Assembly: GCA_041687695.1 (NCBI GenBank)
Contig: JAWLBL010000023.1
Span: 91,840-155,839 of the forward strand
DNA length: 64,000 bases
Source of the DNA: Myxococcota bacterium
GTDB taxonomy: Bacteria; Myxococcota_A; UBA9042; PHBI01; JAWLBL01
Direction of reading: 5' to 3'
The position numbers and the translations under genes are program-made. The notes under the pieces were generated by a model, which saw only the letters and a list, made by a program, of their open reading frames with translations, did no database searches and was not told the DNA's origin. Positions within the stretch are counted from its first letter, which is position 1. The number at the start of each line of letters is the position of its first letter. Below, one piece after another: positions 39,885 to 49,317 of this stretch.

Positions 39885-40115
39885 GGCGACCTCGCCACAC
39901 ACCCAGGCGACCTCGCCACACACCCAGGCGACCTCGCCACACACCCAGGCGACCTCGCCACACACCCAGGCGACCTCGCCACACACCCAGGCGACCTCGC
40001 CACACCGGTGTGGCGGCCCTCGCCCCCCTGTGTGGCGGCCCTCGCCCCCCTGTGTGGCGGCCCTCGCCCCCCTGTGTGGCGGCCCTCGCCCCCCTGTGTG
40101 GCGGCCCTCGCCCCC
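39885..40115. repeat. Two abutting tandem arrays (21-bp x5+ and 22-bp x4+) joined at a palindrome
   Basis: ggcgacctcgccacacaccca starts at 39885 and gtgtggcggccctcgcccccct starts at 40008. The junction is the 18-bp palindrome cgccacaccggtgtggcg. Confidence 0.95.
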
Positions 40116-40522: not shown

Positions 40523-41851
40523 TCAGCGGCTCATCCCGGCCTCCTCGGCGCGGGCGGCGGCGGCGGCGGGCTCGGGGGCGTCGGCGCGGGCGGGGGCCGG
40601 AGCGCCCGTGTAGGTGACCTGGCCGGTGAGGACGGGGATGGCGACCTTGATGGCGACGGTGAGGACCATGAGGCCGAGGGCCCAGATGCCGACGGTGATC
40701 TTCCACTCGGCGAGGCTCGGGGCGTACTCGACGAGCTCGTGCATCGTGCTGGGGACGAAGGCCGGGGTGATGAGGCCCATGCCCTTCTCTATCCAGACGC
40801 CGACGAAGGTCATGACGCAGGCGGCGCCGAGGACGAGCGGATGGGTCAGCGCGCGCCGCCCGAGAAAGAGGATGGCGGCCGTGACGTTCAGCGCGATGGC
40901 GGTCCAGATCCACGGGACGAGGGCGTCGTGCCCGTGGAGGCCGAAGAAGAGGTAGGTCGCCGAGGCGCTGTGGGTGCCGCCCGTGTAGAAGGCGGTGAAG
41001 ACCTCGGACAGGAGGAGGAAGACGTTCAAGATGGCGGTGACGCGGACGATCTTGACGAGGGTGTGGATGGGGCCGTCCTCGACCTTGAAGGGGGTGAAGC
41101 GGCGGATGGCGTAGAGCATGAGGATGAGGAAGGCCGGGCCCGAGACGAAGGCCGAGGCGAGGAAGCGCGGGGCGAGGAGGGCGGTGTTCCAGAAGGGGCG
41201 GCCGCCGAGGCCCGAGTAGAGGAAGGCGGTCACGGTGTGGATGGAGATGGCCCAGACGATGGAGAGGATGACGAAGGGCTTGTACCAGCGCGGGTCGGGG
41301 GGCTTGCCGAGGAAGCGGGTGTAGAGGAGGTAGCCGAGGATGTGGAGGTTCAAGAAGAGGTAGCCGTTGAGGACGATGACGTCCCAGGTGAGCATCGAGA
41401 CCGGCCAGTTGAAGCGGCCGATGCCCGGCAGCATGTGCCAGAAGCGGTCGGGGCGGCCGAGGTCGACGACGACGAAGGCGAGGGCCATGACGATGGCGGC
41501 GACCGCGACGAGCTCGCCGAAGATGACGACGTCGTGCATCTTCTTGTCGCGGTAGAGGTAGGCCGGGATGACCATCAGCACGCCGCCGGCCGCGACGCCG
41601 ACCATGAAGGTGAAGTTGGCGATGTAGAGCCCCCACGAGACGTGGTCGCTCATGCCCGTGACGTGCATGCCGCCGGCGACCTGGTGGGCCCAGGCGTTGG
41701 CGCCGACCAGGGTGAGGGCGGTGAGCAGGGTCATCCAGGCGTAGAAGGGCAGCTTGCCGTCGGTCGCGAGCGACGCGAGGCGCCAGAGGAAGGCCGGATA
41801 GCTGACGCGGTGCGGGGTCGCGTGGACGGGGGTCGGCTTCGTCGGGTTCAT
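40523..41851 (-). CDS. NrfD/PsrC/DsrP-family membrane quinol dehydrogenase subunit
   Basis: SWGLYIANFTFMVGVAAG, VDLGRPDRFWH, HTVTAFL, multi-TM. Confidence 0.92.
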   Translation of the reverse strand: MNPTKPTPVHATPHRVSYPAFLWRLASLATDGKLPFYAWMTLLTALTLVGANAWAHQVAGGMHVTGMSDHVSWGLYIANFTFMVGVAAGGVLMVIPAYLYRDKKMHDVVIFGELVAVAAIVMALAFVVVDLGRPDRFWHMLPGIGRFNWPVSMLTWDVIVLNGYLFLNLHILGYLLYTRFLGKPPDPRWYKPFVILSIVWAISIHTVTAFLYSGLGGRPFWNTALLAPRFLASAFVSGPAFLILMLYAIRRFTPFKVEDGPIHTLVKIVRVTAILNVFLLLSEVFTAFYTGGTHSASATYLFFGLHGHDALVPWIWTAIALNVTAAILFLGRRALTHPLVLGAACVMTFVGVWIEKGMGLITPAFVPSTMHELVEYAPSLAEWKITVGIWALGLMVLTVAIKVAIPVLTGQVTYTGAPAPARADAPEPAAAAARAEEAGMSR

Positions 41852-41858
41852 CGCCGCC

Positions 41859-42821
41859 TCATTTGTCGAAGAAGTAGAAGAAGCGTGGGCGCGTCCCGAG
41901 CTCCTCTTTGAGGACGAAGACGCGCTTGTTGGCGAGGACCCAGCGGATCTCGGAGCTGGGGTCGAGGAGGTTGCCGAAGACCCGGGCGCCGGTGGGGCAC
42001 GCCTCGAGACAGGCCGGCAGCCGCCCCTGCCGCGTCCGGTGCAGGCAGAAGGTGCACTTCTCCATGACCCCCTGCGGGCGGATGCGGTTGGAGAGGTAGC
42101 CCTGGTTCGGGTTGACCTCGGCCGCCGGGATCTCGGGCCGCTTCCAGTTGAAGCGGCGCGCGTGGTAGGGGCAGGCCGCCTCGCAGTAGCGGCACCCGAT
42201 GCACCAGTCGTAGTCGACCACGACGACGCCGTCCTGCTCCTTCCAGGTCGCCTCGACCGGGCACACCGACACGCACGGCGGGTTGTCACACTGCTGGCAT
42301 TGCACCGGCAGATAGAACTTGTCGGGCTGCGGCACCGGGTGGTCGTAGGTGGCGTCGCCGCGCTCGAAGTCGAGCGAGCCCTTGTCCATCTCGAAGACGC
42401 GGATGTAGCTGTTGTTCGTCGCCCGGTCGTGGTTGTTCTCGAGGTGGCAGGCCTCGACGCATTTCCGGCAGCCGATGCAGACGCTGAGGTTGAGGGCGTA
42501 GCCGAACTGCACCCCGTCCTGGGCCTTGGTGTCGGTGACCGTCACGTCCGCGCCGTAGTCGCGCTTGGTCTCGGCCTCGACGCGGGCGATGACCGCCGCC
42601 ATGTCCTCTGGGGTCAGCTCCTTGTAGTGGCGCTGCAGGAACTCATCCATCGACAGCGACTCGGCCCACTCGGTGAGCGGCGCGAGCGCCCGCCCGAAGG
42701 CCGCCACCCCCAGCATCCCCGCGCCCACCTTGGCGACCGTGCGTCGCGACACGCGCCGGTCCCAGATGCTCCCGTCATGCCCGTCGCCGCCCGCCGCGGG
42801 GCGGCCCTGCTCGTCAGTCAT
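41859..42821 (-). CDS. NrfC/DsrO-like 4x[4Fe-4S] ferredoxin subunit
   Basis: Tat-like SRRTV; CIGCRKC, CQQCDNPPCVSVCP, CIGCRYCEAACP, EKCTFC...CLEACP. Confidence 0.92.
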   Translation of the reverse strand: MTDEQGRPAAGGDGHDGSIWDRRVSRRTVAKVGAGMLGVAAFGRALAPLTEWAESLSMDEFLQRHYKELTPEDMAAVIARVEAETKRDYGADVTVTDTKAQDGVQFGYALNLSVCIGCRKCVEACHLENNHDRATNNSYIRVFEMDKGSLDFERGDATYDHPVPQPDKFYLPVQCQQCDNPPCVSVCPVEATWKEQDGVVVVDYDWCIGCRYCEAACPYHARRFNWKRPEIPAAEVNPNQGYLSNRIRPQGVMEKCTFCLHRTRQGRLPACLEACPTGARVFGNLLDPSSEIRWVLANKRVFVLKEELGTRPRFFYFFDK

Positions 42822-43569
42822 GGTGTTCCTCCGTCCTGGGGCCCTGGAATCGGTCGCGCGGCCCCGGCGCGGGGTTCATGCCCACGAAGGCCGGCGCGTG
42901 CGGGTCGTGGCAGGCCGTGCACGTCTGGCGCTCGCGCGGCCCGCGGGTCAGATCCCAATGACCGCGCATCCCGCCGTGCGCGCCGTGCTCCCAGTCGCGC
43001 CGCTGGCTCCCGTGGCACTGGCCGCACAGCGTCATGACGTCGGCGGGCTGCACGTCGCGCCCGTCGGCGAGGCGCAGCGCCGCATAGTCGGGCGCCCCAT
43101 GGCACGAGCCGCAGGTGAGCTCGCCATGACGCAGGCGAAGGCCCGTGTGGAACTCCGAGACGCCGGCGACCCGCTGCGCGGGGCTCGGCGGCGCGAGCAG
43201 AGTGTGGCACGTCGCACAGGGCACCCGTGCCCAATCCCCCGACGGTCCGCGCGCCGCGACCTCGAGGCCCAGGCGCCCGGACTGCCCCGCGTGGCGCACC
43301 ACGACCTCGTGCTGGGCGGCCCCCGCCGCGGCCGGGGACCACGTGTTCGCGGCCACCAGCGCCGGCGGCTCGTGGGGGCCGCACGCCGCGATGGCCACCG
43401 CGAGAGTCAACCCCAGCGCCCACGCGGCTCCGGCGCTCGCCGCGGCCGGTGCGGAGCCCCGGCGAGCCCAGCGGCCGCCCCGATCCGCCCGCCGGACCGG
43501 GCCGGCGCCGCGCGACCGATGGGCCAGCGGGTCCGGTTCCGAAGTCCTCGATTCACCTGGGTCCTTCAT
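42814..43569 (-). CDS. Tetraheme c-type cytochrome (putative lipoprotein)
   Basis: CATCH, CGSCH, CGQCH, CTACH; lipobox-like IAAC; GGAGG RBS. Confidence 0.85.
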   Translation of the reverse strand: MKDPGESRTSEPDPLAHRSRGAGPVRRADRGGRWARRGSAPAAASAGAAWALGLTLAVAIAACGPHEPPALVAANTWSPAAAGAAQHEVVVRHAGQSGRLGLEVAARGPSGDWARVPCATCHTLLAPPSPAQRVAGVSEFHTGLRLRHGELTCGSCHGAPDYAALRLADGRDVQPADVMTLCGQCHGSQRRDWEHGAHGGMRGHWDLTRGPRERQTCTACHDPHAPAFVGMNPAPGPRDRFQGPRTEEHHD

Positions 43570-43591
43570 CCGTCGGCCCTCCGTTCGGCTC

Positions 43592-43619
43592 GGGCACGCA
43601 AGTTGCACACGGCATGCCA
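43592..43619. promoter_or_regulatory. Two overlapping, oppositely oriented sigma54-like promoters
   Basis: Plus strand GGGCAC-GCAAG-TTGCA (43592-43607); minus strand TGGCAT-GCCGT-GTGCA (43619-43604); the TGCA is shared. Confidence 0.55.
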
Positions 43620-43671
43620 TGCCGGCCGGGCCCCACGGCCCCACGCCGCGCCACTTTCGCCGGAGGACCCC

Positions 43672-43977
43672 ATGGCCATCAGCGGACTGATCATCACCTG
43701 GCCGGACGACGCCACGCGCGCCGCCGCCGCGCGCCTCGCCGTCGCCGGCGACCCGCGCTTCGAGCTCGGCCCGGCCGAGGGGCACCGCCAGGTCGCCGTC
43801 CTCGACACGCCCGACCCGCGGGGCGACCGCGAGGCCATCGCCTGGCTGCTCGGCACCGCCGGCGTCGTCCACGCCGACGTCGTCTGCGTCCACCTCGATG
43901 ACGCCCCGCCCCCCACCGCCCGCGCCGCCGAGCCCGGCCCGGCCTGCCTCGCCACATCGGGAGGGACCCCCTCATGA
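43672..43977 (+). CDS. napD: NapD-like chaperone
   Basis: MAISGLII N-terminus, GVVHADVV; about 100 aa, overlapping the napA start. Confidence 0.7.
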   Translation: MAISGLIITWPDDATRAAAARLAVAGDPRFELGPAEGHRQVAVLDTPDPRGDREAIAWLLGTAGVVHADVVCVHLDDAPPPTARAAEPGPACLATSGGTPS

Positions 43978-46415
43978 GCATGGACCGCCGCAGCTTCATC
44001 CGTCGGAGCGCCATGGCCGCCGCGGCCGCCGCGCTCGCTCCCGGCCTCGACCTCGGGGCCGCCTCGGCCGCCAGCGGCGCCGCGGGGCCCGCGCCCGGCG
44101 CCACCGGCGTCAAGTGGGACAAGGCCCCCTGCCGCTTCTGCGGCACCGGCTGCCACGTGCAGGTCGGCGTCGAGGGCGGCCGCGTGGTCGCCATTGCCGG
44201 CGACCGCCAGGCCGAGGTCAACCGCGGGCTGCTCTGCGTCAAGGGCTACCACGTCGGCCTCGCCCTGTACGGCGAGGACCGCCTGACCCGCCCCATGCTG
44301 AGGAAGAACGGGCGCCTCGAGCCCATCTCCTGGGACGAGGCCCTCGACACCATCGCCGGGCGCATCATGGCGGCCCCCGAGCGCTTCGCCTTCTACGGCA
44401 GCGGCCAGTGGACCATCCCCGAGGGCTACGCCGCCAACAAGTTCATGAAGGGCGGCCTCGGCAACAACCACATCGACCCCAACGCGCGCCTGTGCATGGC
44501 CTCGGCCGTCACCGGCTTCCTCGCGACCTACGGCGTCGACGAGCCCGCGGGCTGCTACGACGACCTCGACGCGGCCGACGTCGTCATCCTCTGGGGCAAC
44601 AACCCCGCCGAGATGCACCCCGTCCTCTTCTCGCGCCTCATCGACCGCCGGGCGCGCGGCGAGTCCGTCCGCATCATCGACATCGGGACGCGCCGGACGC
44701 GCTCGACCGAGCACGCCCAGCACTACCTCGAGTTCAGGCCCCAGACCGATCTGGCCATCGCCAACGGCATCGCCCACCTCCTCGTCCAGCGCGGCACCTA
44801 CGACGCCGACTTCGTCGCCAAGCACCTGGCCTTCCGCGCCGACTCCGAGCCGGCCACGAACGCTGGAAAGGCCATCACCTTCGAGGAGTTCAAGGCGTCG
44901 CTCGCGCCCTACACCCCCGAGCACGTCGAGGCCGTCTCAGGCGTCAAGGCCGCCGACATCCGCATGCTCGCCGACCTCTTCGGCGACCGCTCGCTGCGCA
45001 TCACGAGCCTGTGGTGCATGGGGATGAACCAGCACACCCGCGGGACCGCCATCAACACCCTCGTCCACGGCGTGCACCTCCTCAGCGGCCACTTCGGCCG
45101 CCCGGGCGACGCCCCGACGAGCCTCACCGGGCAGCCCTCGGCGTGCGGTACCGTGCGCGAGGTGGGCACGCTGGCCCACGCCCTGCCCGGCGGCCTCGTG
45201 GTCACCGACCAGGCCGGCCGCGACAAGGCCGAGAAGCTCTGGAACCTCCCGCCCGGCCGCATCCAGCCCAAGCCCGGCCACCACACCGTCGAGATGTGGA
45301 AGCGCTTCTGCACCCCGACCGCCGACGGCGGCGACATCGCCACCCTCTGGGTCCAGGTCACCAACCCGGGGCAGACCCTGCCGAACCTCCACGCGCTCTT
45401 CCGCGGCAAAGAGGGCCTCGCCGACAAGTTCCTCATCGTCTCGGACGTCTACCCGACGGCGACCACGGCGCTGGCCGACCTCGTCCTGCCCTCGGCCATG
45501 TGGGTCGAGAAGAACGGCATGTACGGCAACTCCGAGCGCCGGACCCAGCAGTGGTTCAAGATGGTCGACCCCCCCGGCGAGGCGCGCGACGACTGCTGGC
45601 AGACCATCGCCGTCGCGCGGCGCCTGCACGACCTCGGCCACCCCGGGATGAAGGACAAGGACGGCAAGTTCATCTTCTCCATCCCCGACGCCACGGGCGC
45701 CGAGGTCCCGGTCTGGCAGTGGGAGCGCTACTACGACGTCAACGTCGACCGGCACCTCTTCGAGGAGTACCGGCCGTTCACGCGCTTCAAGCACAAGGAT
45801 CTCGCGCCCTACGACGAGTACGTGGCGGCGCGCGGCCTCCGCTGGCCGGTCGTCCAGCAGCCCGACGGCCGCTGGCGCGAGACCAAGTTCCGGTTCTCCG
45901 AGTTCGACGACGGCTACGTCGCGCGCGGCAAGGGCATCGACTTCTACCACTCCCCCACCAAGGACGGACGCGCCCAGGTGTGGGCCCGACCCTACGAGCC
46001 GCCGCCCGAATCCCCCGACGCCGACTACCCGTTCTGGCTGTGCACGGGGCGCGTCGTCGAGCACTGGCACTCGGGGACCATGACGATGCGCATCCCGCAG
46101 CTGCGGCGCGCGATGCCGTCGGCCTACGTCGAGATGCACCCCGAAGACGCCCGCGCCCTCGGCATCGGCAACGGCGACGAGGTGAGCGTGTCGACCCGGC
46201 GCGGCGAGCTCTCCCTCCCTGCGTGGATCGGCGGTCGCGGCGCGCCGCCGCGCGGCAGCCTCTTCATCCCGTTCTTCGACGAGACGCGCCTCGTCAACCT
46301 CCTCACCCTCGACGCCCACGACCCCTTCTCCAAGCAGCCCGACTACAAGAAGTGCGCCGCCCGCGTCGCCCCTCGGCCGCGTAGGGCGGCGACCGCGCCC
46401 GGGAGGTCCGAATGA
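43974..46415 (+). CDS. napA: Periplasmic nitrate reductase catalytic subunit
   Basis: Tat RRSFI; KWDKAPCRFCGTGC; SGQWT; DPNARLCMASA; SLTGQPSACGTVREVG; SKQPDYKKCA. Confidence 0.96.
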   Translation: MSMDRRSFIRRSAMAAAAAALAPGLDLGAASAASGAAGPAPGATGVKWDKAPCRFCGTGCHVQVGVEGGRVVAIAGDRQAEVNRGLLCVKGYHVGLALYGEDRLTRPMLRKNGRLEPISWDEALDTIAGRIMAAPERFAFYGSGQWTIPEGYAANKFMKGGLGNNHIDPNARLCMASAVTGFLATYGVDEPAGCYDDLDAADVVILWGNNPAEMHPVLFSRLIDRRARGESVRIIDIGTRRTRSTEHAQHYLEFRPQTDLAIANGIAHLLVQRGTYDADFVAKHLAFRADSEPATNAGKAITFEEFKASLAPYTPEHVEAVSGVKAADIRMLADLFGDRSLRITSLWCMGMNQHTRGTAINTLVHGVHLLSGHFGRPGDAPTSLTGQPSACGTVREVGTLAHALPGGLVVTDQAGRDKAEKLWNLPPGRIQPKPGHHTVEMWKRFCTPTADGGDIATLWVQVTNPGQTLPNLHALFRGKEGLADKFLIVSDVYPTATTALADLVLPSAMWVEKNGMYGNSERRTQQWFKMVDPPGEARDDCWQTIAVARRLHDLGHPGMKDKDGKFIFSIPDATGAEVPVWQWERYYDVNVDRHLFEEYRPFTRFKHKDLAPYDEYVAARGLRWPVVQQPDGRWRETKFRFSEFDDGYVARGKGIDFYHSPTKDGRAQVWARPYEPPPESPDADYPFWLCTGRVVEHWHSGTMTMRIPQLRRAMPSAYVEMHPEDARALGIGNGDEVSVSTRRGELSLPAWIGGRGAPPRGSLFIPFFDETRLVNLLTLDAHDPFSKQPDYKKCAARVAPRPRRAATAPGRSE

Positions 46416-47167
46416 GCCACACCGCCCCACCGACCGGCCCGCCGGGCGGGCGCTCGTTGCTCGAGGTGGGCCTGACGGTCGTCATCGGCATCGCGTTCGC
46501 CGGCTACCTCGTCGGGACGCGCGCCGCGCCGACCCCGGCCCTCACGCCCGTGACGCCCTTCGCGCTGGCCGAGGCCGTCGTCGACGCGCCCGACCGCGCG
46601 CTGACCTGGGGCGAGCTCGGCTCGGTCCGGCGCGGCCCCAACCAGGGCCCGTCCAGCGATCTCGCGGCGCTCGCCATCCCGCGCAGCGACCGCACCCCGG
46701 CGCCGCCCGGACCCGAGGAGCGCCTGGCGGCCCTGTCCTCGCGCGCCGAGCGCCGGGCCTACGACGGCGCGCCGCCCACCGTCCCGCACGCCATCGACCA
46801 GGTCAGGGCGGGCTACTGCCTGTCGTGCCACGCCGAGGGCATGCGCCTGGGGGACCGCGTGGCGAGGCGCATCAGCCACCCGCCCTATGCCCAGTGCACC
46901 CAGTGCCACGTCGCCTCCGAAGGGCCGCTGCGGGCCGCCGGGATCGCGCCCCCGTCGACGTTCGCGGGGCTGCGTGGCCACGCGGGCGGCGAGCGGGCCT
47001 GGCCCGGGGCCCCGCCGACCATCCCGCACACGACGCTGATGCGCGAGGACTGCGCCTCGTGCCACGGCCCGGCCGGGCCCGTGGGCCTGCGCACCAGCCA
47101 CCCCGAGCGCGGCAGCTGCACGCAATGCCATGCCCCCTCGGCGGTCCTCGACCAGCGGGGAGGCTGA
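46412..47167 (+). CDS. napB: NapB-like cytochrome with duplicated domain (4 hemes)
   Basis: Two copies of GAPPT(V/I)PH...CxxCH...SHP...CTQCH. Confidence 0.85.
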   Translation: MSHTAPPTGPPGGRSLLEVGLTVVIGIAFAGYLVGTRAAPTPALTPVTPFALAEAVVDAPDRALTWGELGSVRRGPNQGPSSDLAALAIPRSDRTPAPPGPEERLAALSSRAERRAYDGAPPTVPHAIDQVRAGYCLSCHAEGMRLGDRVARRISHPPYAQCTQCHVASEGPLRAAGIAPPSTFAGLRGHAGGERAWPGAPPTIPHTTLMREDCASCHGPAGPVGLRTSHPERGSCTQCHAPSAVLDQRGG

Positions 47168-47172
47168 CCGCC

Positions 47173-47601
47173 ATGAGCGCGCGACCCCGACCCGAGCCGG
47201 CGGCCCTCACGCGCCGTTCCTTCCTGTGCGGCGGCTTCCTCAGCCAGCTCGCCGAGGCGATCCGCCCCGCCGACGTGACGACGCCGGCGCCCGCTCCGCC
47301 GCCGCCGCGAGCGAACGAGCCCGAACCCACGCCCCCGTGGGCCCGTGCCGCCCGTCGCGCCGGCCCCCCGCCGCCGCCCGGCGGCCCGGCCCGCATCCTC
47401 AATTACCTGTGCCTCGCCCACCAGGGCACCGCATGCAGCGCCTGCCGCGAGCACTGCCCGATGCCGGGCGCCATCACGCTCCTCGGCGGCCGTCCCCAGG
47501 TCGTGGCCGCCCTGTGCACGGGCTGCGGCGCCTGCGTCGACGTCTGCCCCGCGCCCGCGCCCGCCGTGGTCCGCCTGCCCCTGCCCCCGAGGACCCCATG
47601 A
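47173..47601 (+). CDS. NapF/NapG-like ferredoxin (short)
   Basis: TRRSFL; CLAHQGTACSACREHCP; CTGCGACVDVCP. Confidence 0.8.
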   Translation: MSARPRPEPAALTRRSFLCGGFLSQLAEAIRPADVTTPAPAPPPPRANEPEPTPPWARAARRAGPPPPPGGPARILNYLCLAHQGTACSACREHCPMPGAITLLGGRPQVVAALCTGCGACVDVCPAPAPAVVRLPLPPRTP

Positions 47602-47909
47602 GCACCCTCGCCGCCGATCCCCCCCTCCCCGACGTCTTCCGCGGCGAGCTGGACCCGGCCGGCCTCGGCCGCCTCTTCAGCGATCTCGCCGGCTTCGCCA
47701 CCCTCGACGAGGTCCGCGTCAAGGGCCCGCCCGGCCGCCGCTGCATGGAAGACACCCCAACCCTCGGCGACGCCCTCGCCCGACTCCTCTCCGGCGACGT
47801 CCGGGGCGTCCAGGTCCGCTACACCTTCGAGGGCCGCGGCTGGTGCGACACCGTCCTCGTCCTCTCCGCCGGTCGCTACGCCCTCACTCGCCTCCGCGCT
47901 CCCGTCTGA
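47598..47909 (+). CDS. Hypothetical protein ending the nap operon
   Basis: ATGA overlap; GAGGA RBS; GVQVRY...WCDT motif. Confidence 0.7.
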   Translation: MSTLAADPPLPDVFRGELDPAGLGRLFSDLAGFATLDEVRVKGPPGRRCMEDTPTLGDALARLLSGDVRGVQVRYTFEGRGWCDTVLVLSAGRYALTRLRAPV

Positions 47910-48127: not shown

Positions 48128-48350
48128 TCAGCGCTCCTCGAAGGAGCCGTAGGCCTCGGCCAGGTGCTCGATCAAGCAGCGCACCGCCGGCAGCAGGCCT
48201 CGGCGCGAGGGGAACACCACGTGGATGATCTCCGGCGGCTGCCAGTCGGGCAGCACGTCGACCAGGCGCCCGGCCGCCGGCATTGCCCCCGCTCTCATCG
48301 AGGCCGAGGTGGCCGAGCAGGCCGGCGGTGCATGCGGAACCGTGCGGCAT
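48128..48350 (-). pseudogene. LysR-type regulator remnant (C-terminal end only)
   Basis: AAGRLVDVLPDWQ...IHVVFPSRRGLLPAVRCLIEHL is a typical LTTR C-terminus; no HTH; divergent from pirin. Confidence 0.7.
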
Positions 48351-48453: not shown

Positions 48454-49317
48454 ATGAAACCAATCCTGGCGACCCGAAGCGCACCGGCGCCCCACTGGGT
48501 GGGCAACGGTTTTCCGGTGCGCTCCTTGTTCAGCTACGCGGACCGTCATCTGCCGCTCAGCCCGTTCCTGCTGCTGGACTATGCCGGTCCCACCCGGTTT
48601 CCGGCCGGCCGTGAGCGCCGCGGCGTCGGCGAGCACCCGCACCGCGGGTTCGAGACCGTGACCATCGTCTACGGCGGCGAGGTCGAGCACCGCGACTCTT
48701 CCGGTGGCGGCGGTGTCATCGGTCCCGGCGATGTGCAGTGGATGACGGCCGGCGGCGGGATCCTGCACGAGGAGTTCCACACCGAGGCCTTCACCCGACG
48801 TGGCGGCGAGCTGGAGATGGTCCAGCTGTGGGTCAACCTGCCGGGACGAGACAAGCTCACGCCGGCGCGCTACCAGGCCATCGTCGACGCCGACATCCCG
48901 GTCATCGAGCTGCCCGACGCGGCTGGTCGCCTGCGCCTCATCGCCGGCGAGCTCGACGGTCGACGCGGGGCCGCCGAGACGTTCTCGCCGGTTGACGTCT
49001 GGGACCTGCGGCTGGCGGCCGGCAAGCGGGTCGAGCTGCCCGCCGCCGACGGCCGCAGCCTGATGGTCGTAGCGCTGCAGGGCACGGTGCTCGTCAACGA
49101 CGAGGCGATCCTGCGGGACGCGCAGCTGGCCGTGCTGGACCCACACGGCGAAGGCGTCGCCGTGCAGGCCGACGGCGACGCCAAGCTGCTGGTGCTGGGC
49201 GGAGCGCCCATCGACGAGCCGGTGGTGGGCTACGGCCCCTTCGTCATGACCAGCGAGGCCGAGATCCGGCAGGCCATCGCCGACTTCAACAGCGGCCGCT
49301 TCGGCCGCGCTCCCTGA
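48454..49317 (+). CDS. Pirin-family protein
   Basis: PFLLLDY, HPHRGFETVT, GDVQWMTAGGGILHEE, QLWVNLP, GPFVM. Confidence 0.95.
   Translation: MKPILATRSAPAPHWVGNGFPVRSLFSYADRHLPLSPFLLLDYAGPTRFPAGRERRGVGEHPHRGFETVTIVYGGEVEHRDSSGGGGVIGPGDVQWMTAGGGILHEEFHTEAFTRRGGELEMVQLWVNLPGRDKLTPARYQAIVDADIPVIELPDAAGRLRLIAGELDGRRGAAETFSPVDVWDLRLAAGKRVELPAADGRSLMVVALQGTVLVNDEAILRDAQLAVLDPHGEGVAVQADGDAKLLVLGGAPIDEPVVGYGPFVMTSEAEIRQAIADFNSGRFGRAP

Follow-up and report, generated by a model that had tools for sequence, protein, structure and literature searches.

NapC or NapGH are the textbook electron donors of the periplasmic nitrate reductase Nap, and in NrfCD/PsrBC-type modules the oxidation of quinol feeds an iron-sulfur (FeS) chain and then a cytochrome. 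Canonical Nap systems combine NapAB with NapC, or NapAB with NapGH as in Wolinella and Ca. Sulfobium (PMC5812927). FeS/NrfD/multiheme modules have been described as quinol:periplasmic cytochrome reductases (PMC9386147). In Geobacter sulfurreducens, Cbc4 (CbcS/CbcT/CbcU) is a proposed quinol:cytochrome c oxidoreductase (bioRxiv 10.1101/2025.04.14.648717); its tetraheme, bis-His subunit CbcS can reduce PpcA in vitro, and its apparent potential at pH 7 is -139 mV (bioRxiv 2025.04.14.648717). A DsrOhPh-tetrahaem locus, separate from dsrMK, occurs in cable bacteria, Desulfobulbales and some Beta- and Gammaproteobacteria (PMC13047784; PMC10926707). Our study reports on a 64,000-nucleotide stretch of DNA from a Myxococcota bacterium (the window; source genome G000), in which a nap operon and a three-gene NrfD module stand back to back at positions 40523-47909. 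We propose, with a probability of roughly 0.78, that the three module genes encode a quinol:cytochrome c oxidoreductase which would be the main electron donor of a divergent NapA clade, replacing NapC/NapGH; this reading is well supported by genome context.

The region holds eight genes, three on the minus strand and five on the plus strand. All of them were found in the order given in an earlier note on this DNA, with napD-napA-napB-ferredoxin-orf (open reading frame) on the plus strand and cytochrome-FeS-NrfD on the minus strand, and the gap between the two halves, put there at about 100 bp, measures 102 bp between the divergent starts of the cytochrome and napD-like genes (43570-43671). That napC, napH and nrfA are missing from the window likewise held, as genome-wide searches place none of them there. 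The features, with protein lengths in amino acids (aa), are these:

40523-41851, minus strand: NrfD-family, DsrP-like membrane subunit, 442 aa (Pfam NrfD, NCBIfam DsrP)
41859-42821, minus strand: DsrO/NrfC-type 4x[4Fe-4S] protein, 320 aa, with a twin-arginine-like N-terminus (NCBIfam, 16 Cys)
42814-43569, minus strand: tetraheme cytochrome c, probably membrane-anchored (four CxxCH, lipobox-like Cys63)
43592-43607, plus strand: sigma-54-like -24/-12 element toward napD (consensus scan)
43604-43619, minus strand: sigma-54-like -24/-12 element toward the cytochrome gene (consensus scan)
43672-43977, plus strand: NapD-like chaperone, 101 aa (homologues match PF03927)
43974-46415, plus strand: NapA of a divergent clade, 813 aa (NCBIfam, PDB match, motifs)
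46412-47167, plus strand: tetraheme NapB of two tandem NapB-like diheme units (Pfam NapB, profile against structures)
47173-47601, plus strand: small [4Fe-4S] ferredoxin, weakly NapF-like, accessory (Fer4 matches)
47598-47909, plus strand: conserved orf ending the nap operon (homologues at related loci)

The module accompanies napA with great regularity. A GTDB genome scan gave 384 relatives of the NrfD protein, and in 78 of the best 80 loci napA adjoins the module; the other two are contigs ending near the gene. Sixty-five of the linked loci are divergent and 13 co-directional, the latter in the order cytochrome-FeS-NrfD-(napD)-napA-napB, and their record titles name Myxococcota, Planctomycetota, Opitutales, Vicinamibacteraceae and Bradymonadales, with several cultured strains. 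From the NapA side, clade NapA (above 1000 bits) is present in 50 of 301 genomes of the window's phylum, G000 included, and an NrfD gene lies within 7 kb of it in 46 of these (27 divergent, 19 co-directional); the exceptions are a locus split over two contigs (G088), two short contigs (G247, G002) and G044. The second sample comprised 301 genomes of Planctomycetota, the phylum of locus L013 (titled Phycisphaerales); clade NapA occurs in 28 of them, with the module adjacent in all 28, one a contig-end fragment. The genomes in these samples are related, so that the counts are those of kin and not of independent trials. Synteny of this NapA clade, on which the earlier note had staked its reading, is conserved from both sides.

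The linkage also survives rearrangement. In L163, L164 and Flammeovirga the module follows napB, and on the Flammeovirga replicon a single run reads napD-napA-tetraheme napB-cytochrome-FeS-NrfD. Another 36 NapA matches in the Planctomycetota sample are weaker; 13 were inspected, and three of these have the module and ten a Rieske-cytochrome b-octaheme set upstream, which fills the same slot at three loci of the window's phylum as well. Rieske protein and cytochrome b are an established quinol oxidase pair. The intermediate order cytochrome-FeS-NrfD-octaheme-napA-napB is seen in L152 and L153, and judging from these gene orders the module and Rieske/cytochrome b appear to exchange one slot beside napA.

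Two further arrangements deserve a record of their own. The order Rieske - cytochrome b - HAO-like octaheme - napA - NapB-like cytochrome was found at 13 loci in two phyla (L109, L111, L112, L154-L158, L160-L162, L165, L166), and an operon of this type may couple a bc-type quinol oxidase to the reduction of nitrate, perhaps of nitrite. Two loci in which the genes are interleaved (cyt-FeS-napA-napB-NrfD; L107 and L110) were dropped as support because their NapA-like proteins lack the Mo-ligand Cys: RFSE or RFAD replaces RLCM (L107:7374-14599, L110:6137-13458). These operons carry a multiheme gene of 8 or 17 hemes between napA and a very divergent NrfD gene, and the NapA-derived proteins possibly act on another substrate or serve as a non-catalytic subunit.

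In an NrfD tree, a check proposed in the earlier note and built here from a subsample of 65 of 144 sequences, the Nap-linked proteins form a subclade of 31 sampled rows with 100% support. Six of these rows were labelled as lacking nap by threshold, four being truncated or split contigs and two genuine (L087, L104). A different branch holds the relatives labelled Desulfobulbales, Burkholderiales and Nitrospirota, at about 49% identity. NrfD and NapA diverge together across 96 loci (Mantel r 0.76, where 500 shuffles reached at most 0.17), and the strong splits common to both number 27 of 36 and 32 of 46.

Strong matches to the canonical donors are scarce in the genomes that carry this clade. A search for napC, napH and nrfA throughout G000 (7.97 Mb, 99.27% complete), another check named in the earlier note, gave no match to napH (TIGR02163) at E ≤ 0.001, and the sole NapC/NirT-family gene (PF03264) is nrfH, which lies on a different contig (C14) and immediately precedes nrfA. 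Fifty genomes were then compared, 48 of the 50 clade carriers (without G000 and G002) together with G216 and G286. NapH scores above its cut-off in one of them. NapC-family matches occur in 27, two of them strong and on other contigs, 15 beside nrfA and the rest weak; the remaining 23 genomes, including the one-contig G013 and the two-contig G271, have no NapC-family match, and nrfA is present in 16. G000 further encodes a cd1-domain protein, a NorCB-like pair and NrfA, with no match to narG or clade II nosZ across the genome. The protein with the cd1 (NirS-like) domain (G000:C4:6497-8506) starts with a His-rich, lipoprotein-like N-terminus, and two c-heme motifs lie ahead of the domain. There are two further NrfD-family genes in G000, which from their neighbours appear to belong to alternative complex III and a formate dehydrogenase (FDH).

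The composition of the module is that of a putative quinol-oxidizing complex without a catalytic subunit of its own. Its membrane protein matches Pfam NrfD (E 2e-43) and passes the NCBIfam DsrP model (433 bits, cut-off 350), against 27 bits for NCBIfam NrfD (cut-off 348), and a simple hydropathy scan finds nine hydrophobic segments. The FeS protein has DsrO as its top model at 195.7 bits, just below the cut-off of 200, and reaches 128 bits with NrfC (cut-off 378). The name NrfC-NrfD used in the earlier note is thus right for the NrfD family by Pfam, while the NCBIfam scores lie closer to DsrO/DsrP; its label DsrJOP-like suits O and P, and fails for J, as the cytochrome has four hemes and no match to the NCBIfam DsrJ model. 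Residues D130, S152, D157, E355 and K356 of the NrfD protein, invariant in 103 of 103 relatives, align with H139, S164, D169, E394 and R395 of ActC, which are quinol-site and channel residues (PMC8076601, Table 2). The protein combines the Pfam domain with the conserved quinone-site Ser and acidic/His residue of the NrfD family, and D130/S152/D157 and E355/K356 form its putative quinol site. The FeS protein has 16 Cys in four groups, and a pattern search finds the RR motif in 60 of 79 homologues.

The cytochrome gene starts with an ATG at 43569 that is preceded by GGAGG. Four CxxCH motifs are present in 77 of 77 homologues and four additional His are invariant across 55 aligned sequences, from which we infer four bis-His hemes. 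A lipobox-like motif (Cys63 here) recurs in 42 of 77 homologues, and the protein is probably membrane-anchored through it. With regard to a possible NapC/NirT-like heme core, a weak comparison of its profile with that of the genome's NrfH gave a probability of 41% over 52 columns. Heme-less models of both locus cytochromes found no Foldseek match at E ≤ 0.001, and VIA-align gave best Z values of 2.2 and 3.2 with no clear match. In L090 (11378-12787) a tetraheme cytochrome and an FeS subunit are fused in a single reading frame, which is consistent with joint action of the two subunits.

On the nap side, NapA scores 891.6 bits (cut-off 904) and 862 bits (cut-off 930.55) against its NCBIfam models, and FDH is the next-best family at 433 bits. 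The best PDB match is a NapA (E 4e-228), as are all six top PDB matches. The motifs CRFCGTGC, for the [4Fe-4S] cluster, and NARLCMAS, with the Mo ligand, align with 3ml1 (NARHCMAS), and the protein carries a twin-arginine signal; by its sequence it is a member of the periplasmic nitrate reductase family from a divergent clade, with a predicted activity. The 101-aa protein itself has no match to the NapD model and is assigned as NapD-like because nine of 20 homologues match PF03927, one above the cut-off. NapB differs from the single diheme unit implied by its name in the earlier note: a NapB-type cytochrome is at the locus, with four hemes instead of two. It scores 42 bits with Pfam NapB (cut-off 25), and its family profile matches three solved NapB chains (3ml1_B, 1jni_A, 1ogy_B; best E 1.5e-7). 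The two halves align over 56 aa with 43% identity (E 1e-11), four CxxCH occur in 69 of 70 homologues, 65 of the 70 have the PPx[IVM]PH motif twice, and a membrane or signal helix precedes the two diheme units; we read the protein as a tandem-duplicated tetraheme variant. NapB also has four invariant extra His, and such residues in both cytochromes are consistent with bis-His electron wires. The ferredoxin, with Fer4 matches and 23 bits against NapF (cut-off 102), was detected at 45 of 80 related loci. The last orf, of about 100 aa, was detected at 63 of 80; it has no match in Pfam, NCBIfam, the PDB or named Atlas clusters, and with invariant Q72, Y75, W82, D84, T85 and R98 in 28 sequences (pattern Q-x-x-Y ... 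W-x-D-T ... R) it is a candidate maturation factor.

These components suggest a model for the supply of electrons to Nap. We propose that the DsrP-like subunit oxidizes quinol at a site on the periplasmic side and that the electrons would pass four [4Fe-4S] clusters and then the anchored tetraheme cytochrome, which would hand them to the duplicated tetraheme NapB; NapB would in turn feed the [4Fe-4S] and Mo centre of NapA, where nitrate would be reduced to nitrite. In favour of such a route, CbcS of Geobacter, the counterpart by architecture, can donate electrons to a periplasmic cytochrome in vitro (bioRxiv 2025.04.14.648717). A complex of the cytochrome with NapB, predicted without hemes, scored 0.53, against 0.02 for the best of three controls; the runs share at least 78% of contacts, and the partner has a predicted local distance difference test score (pLDDT) of at least 70. 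The mark for this score is reached by 116 of 157 solved pairs and 2 of 215 mismatched pairs, and the range up to 0.60 holds only 18 of the solved pairs yet both mismatches. Modelling, as the earlier note had suggested, thus sets the pair above its controls, and at 0.53 the predicted contact lends weak support to the hand-off.

Both halves of the locus would be co-induced in this model. The 102-bp gap contains two sigma-54-like elements, one per direction, that overlap by 4 bp. Scored with a -24/-12 consensus, elements of at least 10 point toward the cytochrome at 39 of 65 divergent loci (0.85 expected from base shuffles) and toward nap at 27 of 65 (1.55 expected), a signal that comes mainly from loci titled Myxococcota. 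A motif of sigma-54 activators is present in 20 proteins of G000, and the two halves are probably co-induced from the predicted sigma-54 promoters. A sigma-70 and terminator scan gave no terminator and one promoter-like site, outside the locus.

Several observations weigh against the proposed route. G000 has other quinol oxidizers that might reach NapB, namely NrfH and alternative complex III. Thirty-five further genomes of the 50 compared have weak, sub-threshold NapH-like matches, and weak NapC-family matches away from nrfA occur among the 50 too. The NapA of G044 is 71% identical and has no module within the 20 kb surveyed, with an octaheme and a porin upstream instead. L087 and L104 are nested in the Nap clade; their surroundings are multiheme arrays, and napA is missing from the region surveyed. 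Host ancestry alone could explain part of the correlation between NrfD and NapA. Four canonical-NapA loci carry a paralogous module, and three of them (L089, L113, L114) also have a NapH-like gene, so a module and NapH can coexist. The module family as a whole is promiscuous, though this subclade is Nap-linked. Outside the subclade the module adjoins MtrC/OmcA decahemes, HAO-like octahemes, NirS, canonical NapA or a sensor kinase, and some paralogous modules stand alone; given this range of multiheme and reductase neighbours, the family is a generic adaptor between quinol and the periplasm, and its pairing with Nap has arisen repeatedly. The earlier note had held that its reading would fall if napC or napGH elsewhere were co-regulated with napA and the module travelled with another terminal reductase. 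This is not what the genomes show: paralogues do travel with other reductases, for example NirS, and the subclade itself stays with Nap apart from L087 and L104 in their multiheme arrays.

Some of these paralogous loci are of interest in themselves. In L113, L121 and L125 (probably also L122) the module comes immediately after nirS and a tetraheme gene of c554-like type, and might take the place where NirT could be expected. Large multiheme arrays surround the modules of L087, L104, L093, L094 and L120; MtrC/OmcA-type decahemes were confirmed in L087, L093 and L120, and the modules of L087 and L104 have their origin in the Nap-linked subclade. In L115 (G032) a canonical nap operon and a nap operon of this clade stand in tandem, and each is preceded or followed by its own paralogous module.

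CymA serves Shewanella as a general hub between quinol and the periplasm, and the module could be a general quinol:periplasmic cytochrome hub of this sort, co-regulated with nap and feeding other acceptors (the cd1-type protein, cNor, NrfA) as well. The presence of all three in G000 fits such a role, as do the paralogues that stand beside NirS (L113, L121, L125), HAO-like octahemes (L090, L092, L096) or MtrC/OmcA decahemes (L087, L093, L120), or alone, and the ability of CbcS to reduce a general periplasmic carrier (bioRxiv 2025.04.14.648717). However, only 2 of the 31 sampled rows of the fully supported subclade have a clearly non-nap context, and NrfA has its own NrfH here and is encoded in only 16 of the 50 genomes. 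We consider a hub improbable; it overlaps the proposal of a Nap donor and does not oppose it.

It seems less probable still that NrfH or alternative complex III feeds NapAB and that the module, though controlled by the same regulator, has another task, for instance redox balancing or reverse quinone reduction as in Qrc. Both donors are encoded in G000, and NrfD-family complexes work in either direction (PMC8076601, Table 1), but 23 genomes, G013 and G271 among them, have no NapC/NrfH-family match, and linkage across rearrangements together with the exchange of one slot with Rieske/cytochrome b would be hard to explain without direct coupling. The passing DsrP score, the nearly passing DsrO score and the public annotation of relatives as DsrP could also suggest a remnant of sulfur metabolism (DsrJOP), or a functioning part of it, whose place near nap is accidental. 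This idea is largely refuted, and we give it hardly any credence: G000 at its level of completeness has no match to dsrA or dsrM, its best DsrK scores are 45 and 34 bits against a cut-off of 400, the cytochrome with its four hemes is no DsrJ, and adjacency at 78 of 80 loci is beyond chance. A module that donates electrons to Nap remains the reading that we prefer.

Such a donor route would have consequences for annotation and physiology. Nap operons without NapC/NapGH are read by annotators as incomplete, and the public label 'sulfate reduction complex DsrP' on these proteins is a mis-annotation, G000 having no dsrA or dsrM match. With clade NapA in about 1/6 of the genomes (50/301) of one phylum sample and about 1/11 (28/301) of the other, nearly always beside the module, the route would be a common one and therefore no curiosity. 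It also supplies the module family of the Cbc4 and DsrOhPh-tetrahaem type with a definite terminal partner, and cultured carriers include Sorangium cellulosum So ce56, Archangium gephyra, Pyxidicoccus fallax, Aeoliella straminimaris and Flammeovirga kamogawensis. More speculatively, these loci may represent a separate Nap class, common in Myxococcota and Planctomycetota and found also in Verrucomicrobiota, Acidobacteriota and Bacteroidota, in which electrons reach NapA along a single wire made up of the NrfD-type module, the tetraheme cytochrome and a tetraheme NapB tethered to the membrane, and in which NrfD moves protons, with the module family perhaps the missing quinol link of other orphan periplasmic reductases such as cable-bacterial NapAB. 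We regard this wider proposal as unlikely in its entirety; if NrfD does move protons, Nap respiration would itself be energy-conserving, in contrast to the NapC route.

Elsewhere in the window, no further multiheme genes are among the gene calls. Two adjacent, near-perfect tandem arrays lie downstream of the NrfD gene at 39885-40115 (21 bp x 5.8, 100% match; 22 bp x 5.5, 96%). Beyond the last orf, a pirin gene stands beside a short reading frame (48128-48283 and 48454-49317), the translation of which resembles what is left of the C-terminus of a LysR-type regulator.

Comparison with described systems places the locus between several of them. Our literature search, which did not extend to key subscription reviews, found no proposal of the module as the quinol dehydrogenase of Nap; Table 1 of PMC8076601 contains no Nap-linked NrfD complex, and the arrangement is not described in the available text of PMC11896075, PMC10949509 and PMC5812927. 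One sentence in PMC10732223 places an MHC-4Fe4S-NrfD cluster downstream of Nap- and Nxr-encoding genes in the metagenome-assembled genomes OFTM8 and OFTM33 from a tunnel biofilm. This is possibly the same arrangement; the passage groups it with clusters like alternative complex III and proposes no replacement of NapC/NapGH.

With DsrMKJOP the module shares a DsrP-like membrane subunit and a DsrO-like FeS protein; it lacks the triheme DsrJ, and G000 has no match to dsrA or dsrM and scores far below the cut-off for DsrK, so from its sequences the module is not DsrJOP. The order of logic in NrfABCD of E. coli, from NrfD through NrfC and the multiheme NrfB to the terminal reductase (PMC8076601), is the same as the one we propose. 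Here, however, the terminal enzyme is a molybdoenzyme reached via two tetraheme cytochromes; there is no linked nrfA or pentaheme NrfB, the scores are not those of NrfC/NrfD, and nrfA lies elsewhere with nrfH. By architecture only, the module matches Cbc4 and the DsrOhPh-tetrahaem locus, as it comprises an anchored bis-His tetraheme cytochrome, a 4x[4Fe-4S] protein and an NrfD-type integral membrane subunit, without its own catalytic subunit. The sections seen of the Cbc4 report treat metal reduction and PpcA and mention no Nap link, and the DsrOhPh locus, which combines DsrO- and DsrP-like genes with a tetraheme His-His cytochrome also in hosts without sulfur metabolism, is given no nap link in the corresponding text of PMC13047784. 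Compared with canonical Nap, the locus has no napC in, or regulated with, the nap operon and the genome has no napH match, a linked NrfD-type module standing in their stead; NapB is doubled to four hemes, and NapA falls slightly below its NCBIfam cut-off. Like canonical Nap, the system has a NapA with the Cys/Met active-site motif, a NapD-like chaperone, a NapB-type cytochrome and a predicted role in periplasmic nitrate reduction. The locus, which is widely conserved, joins known building blocks into a proposed and apparently unnamed electron input to Nap.

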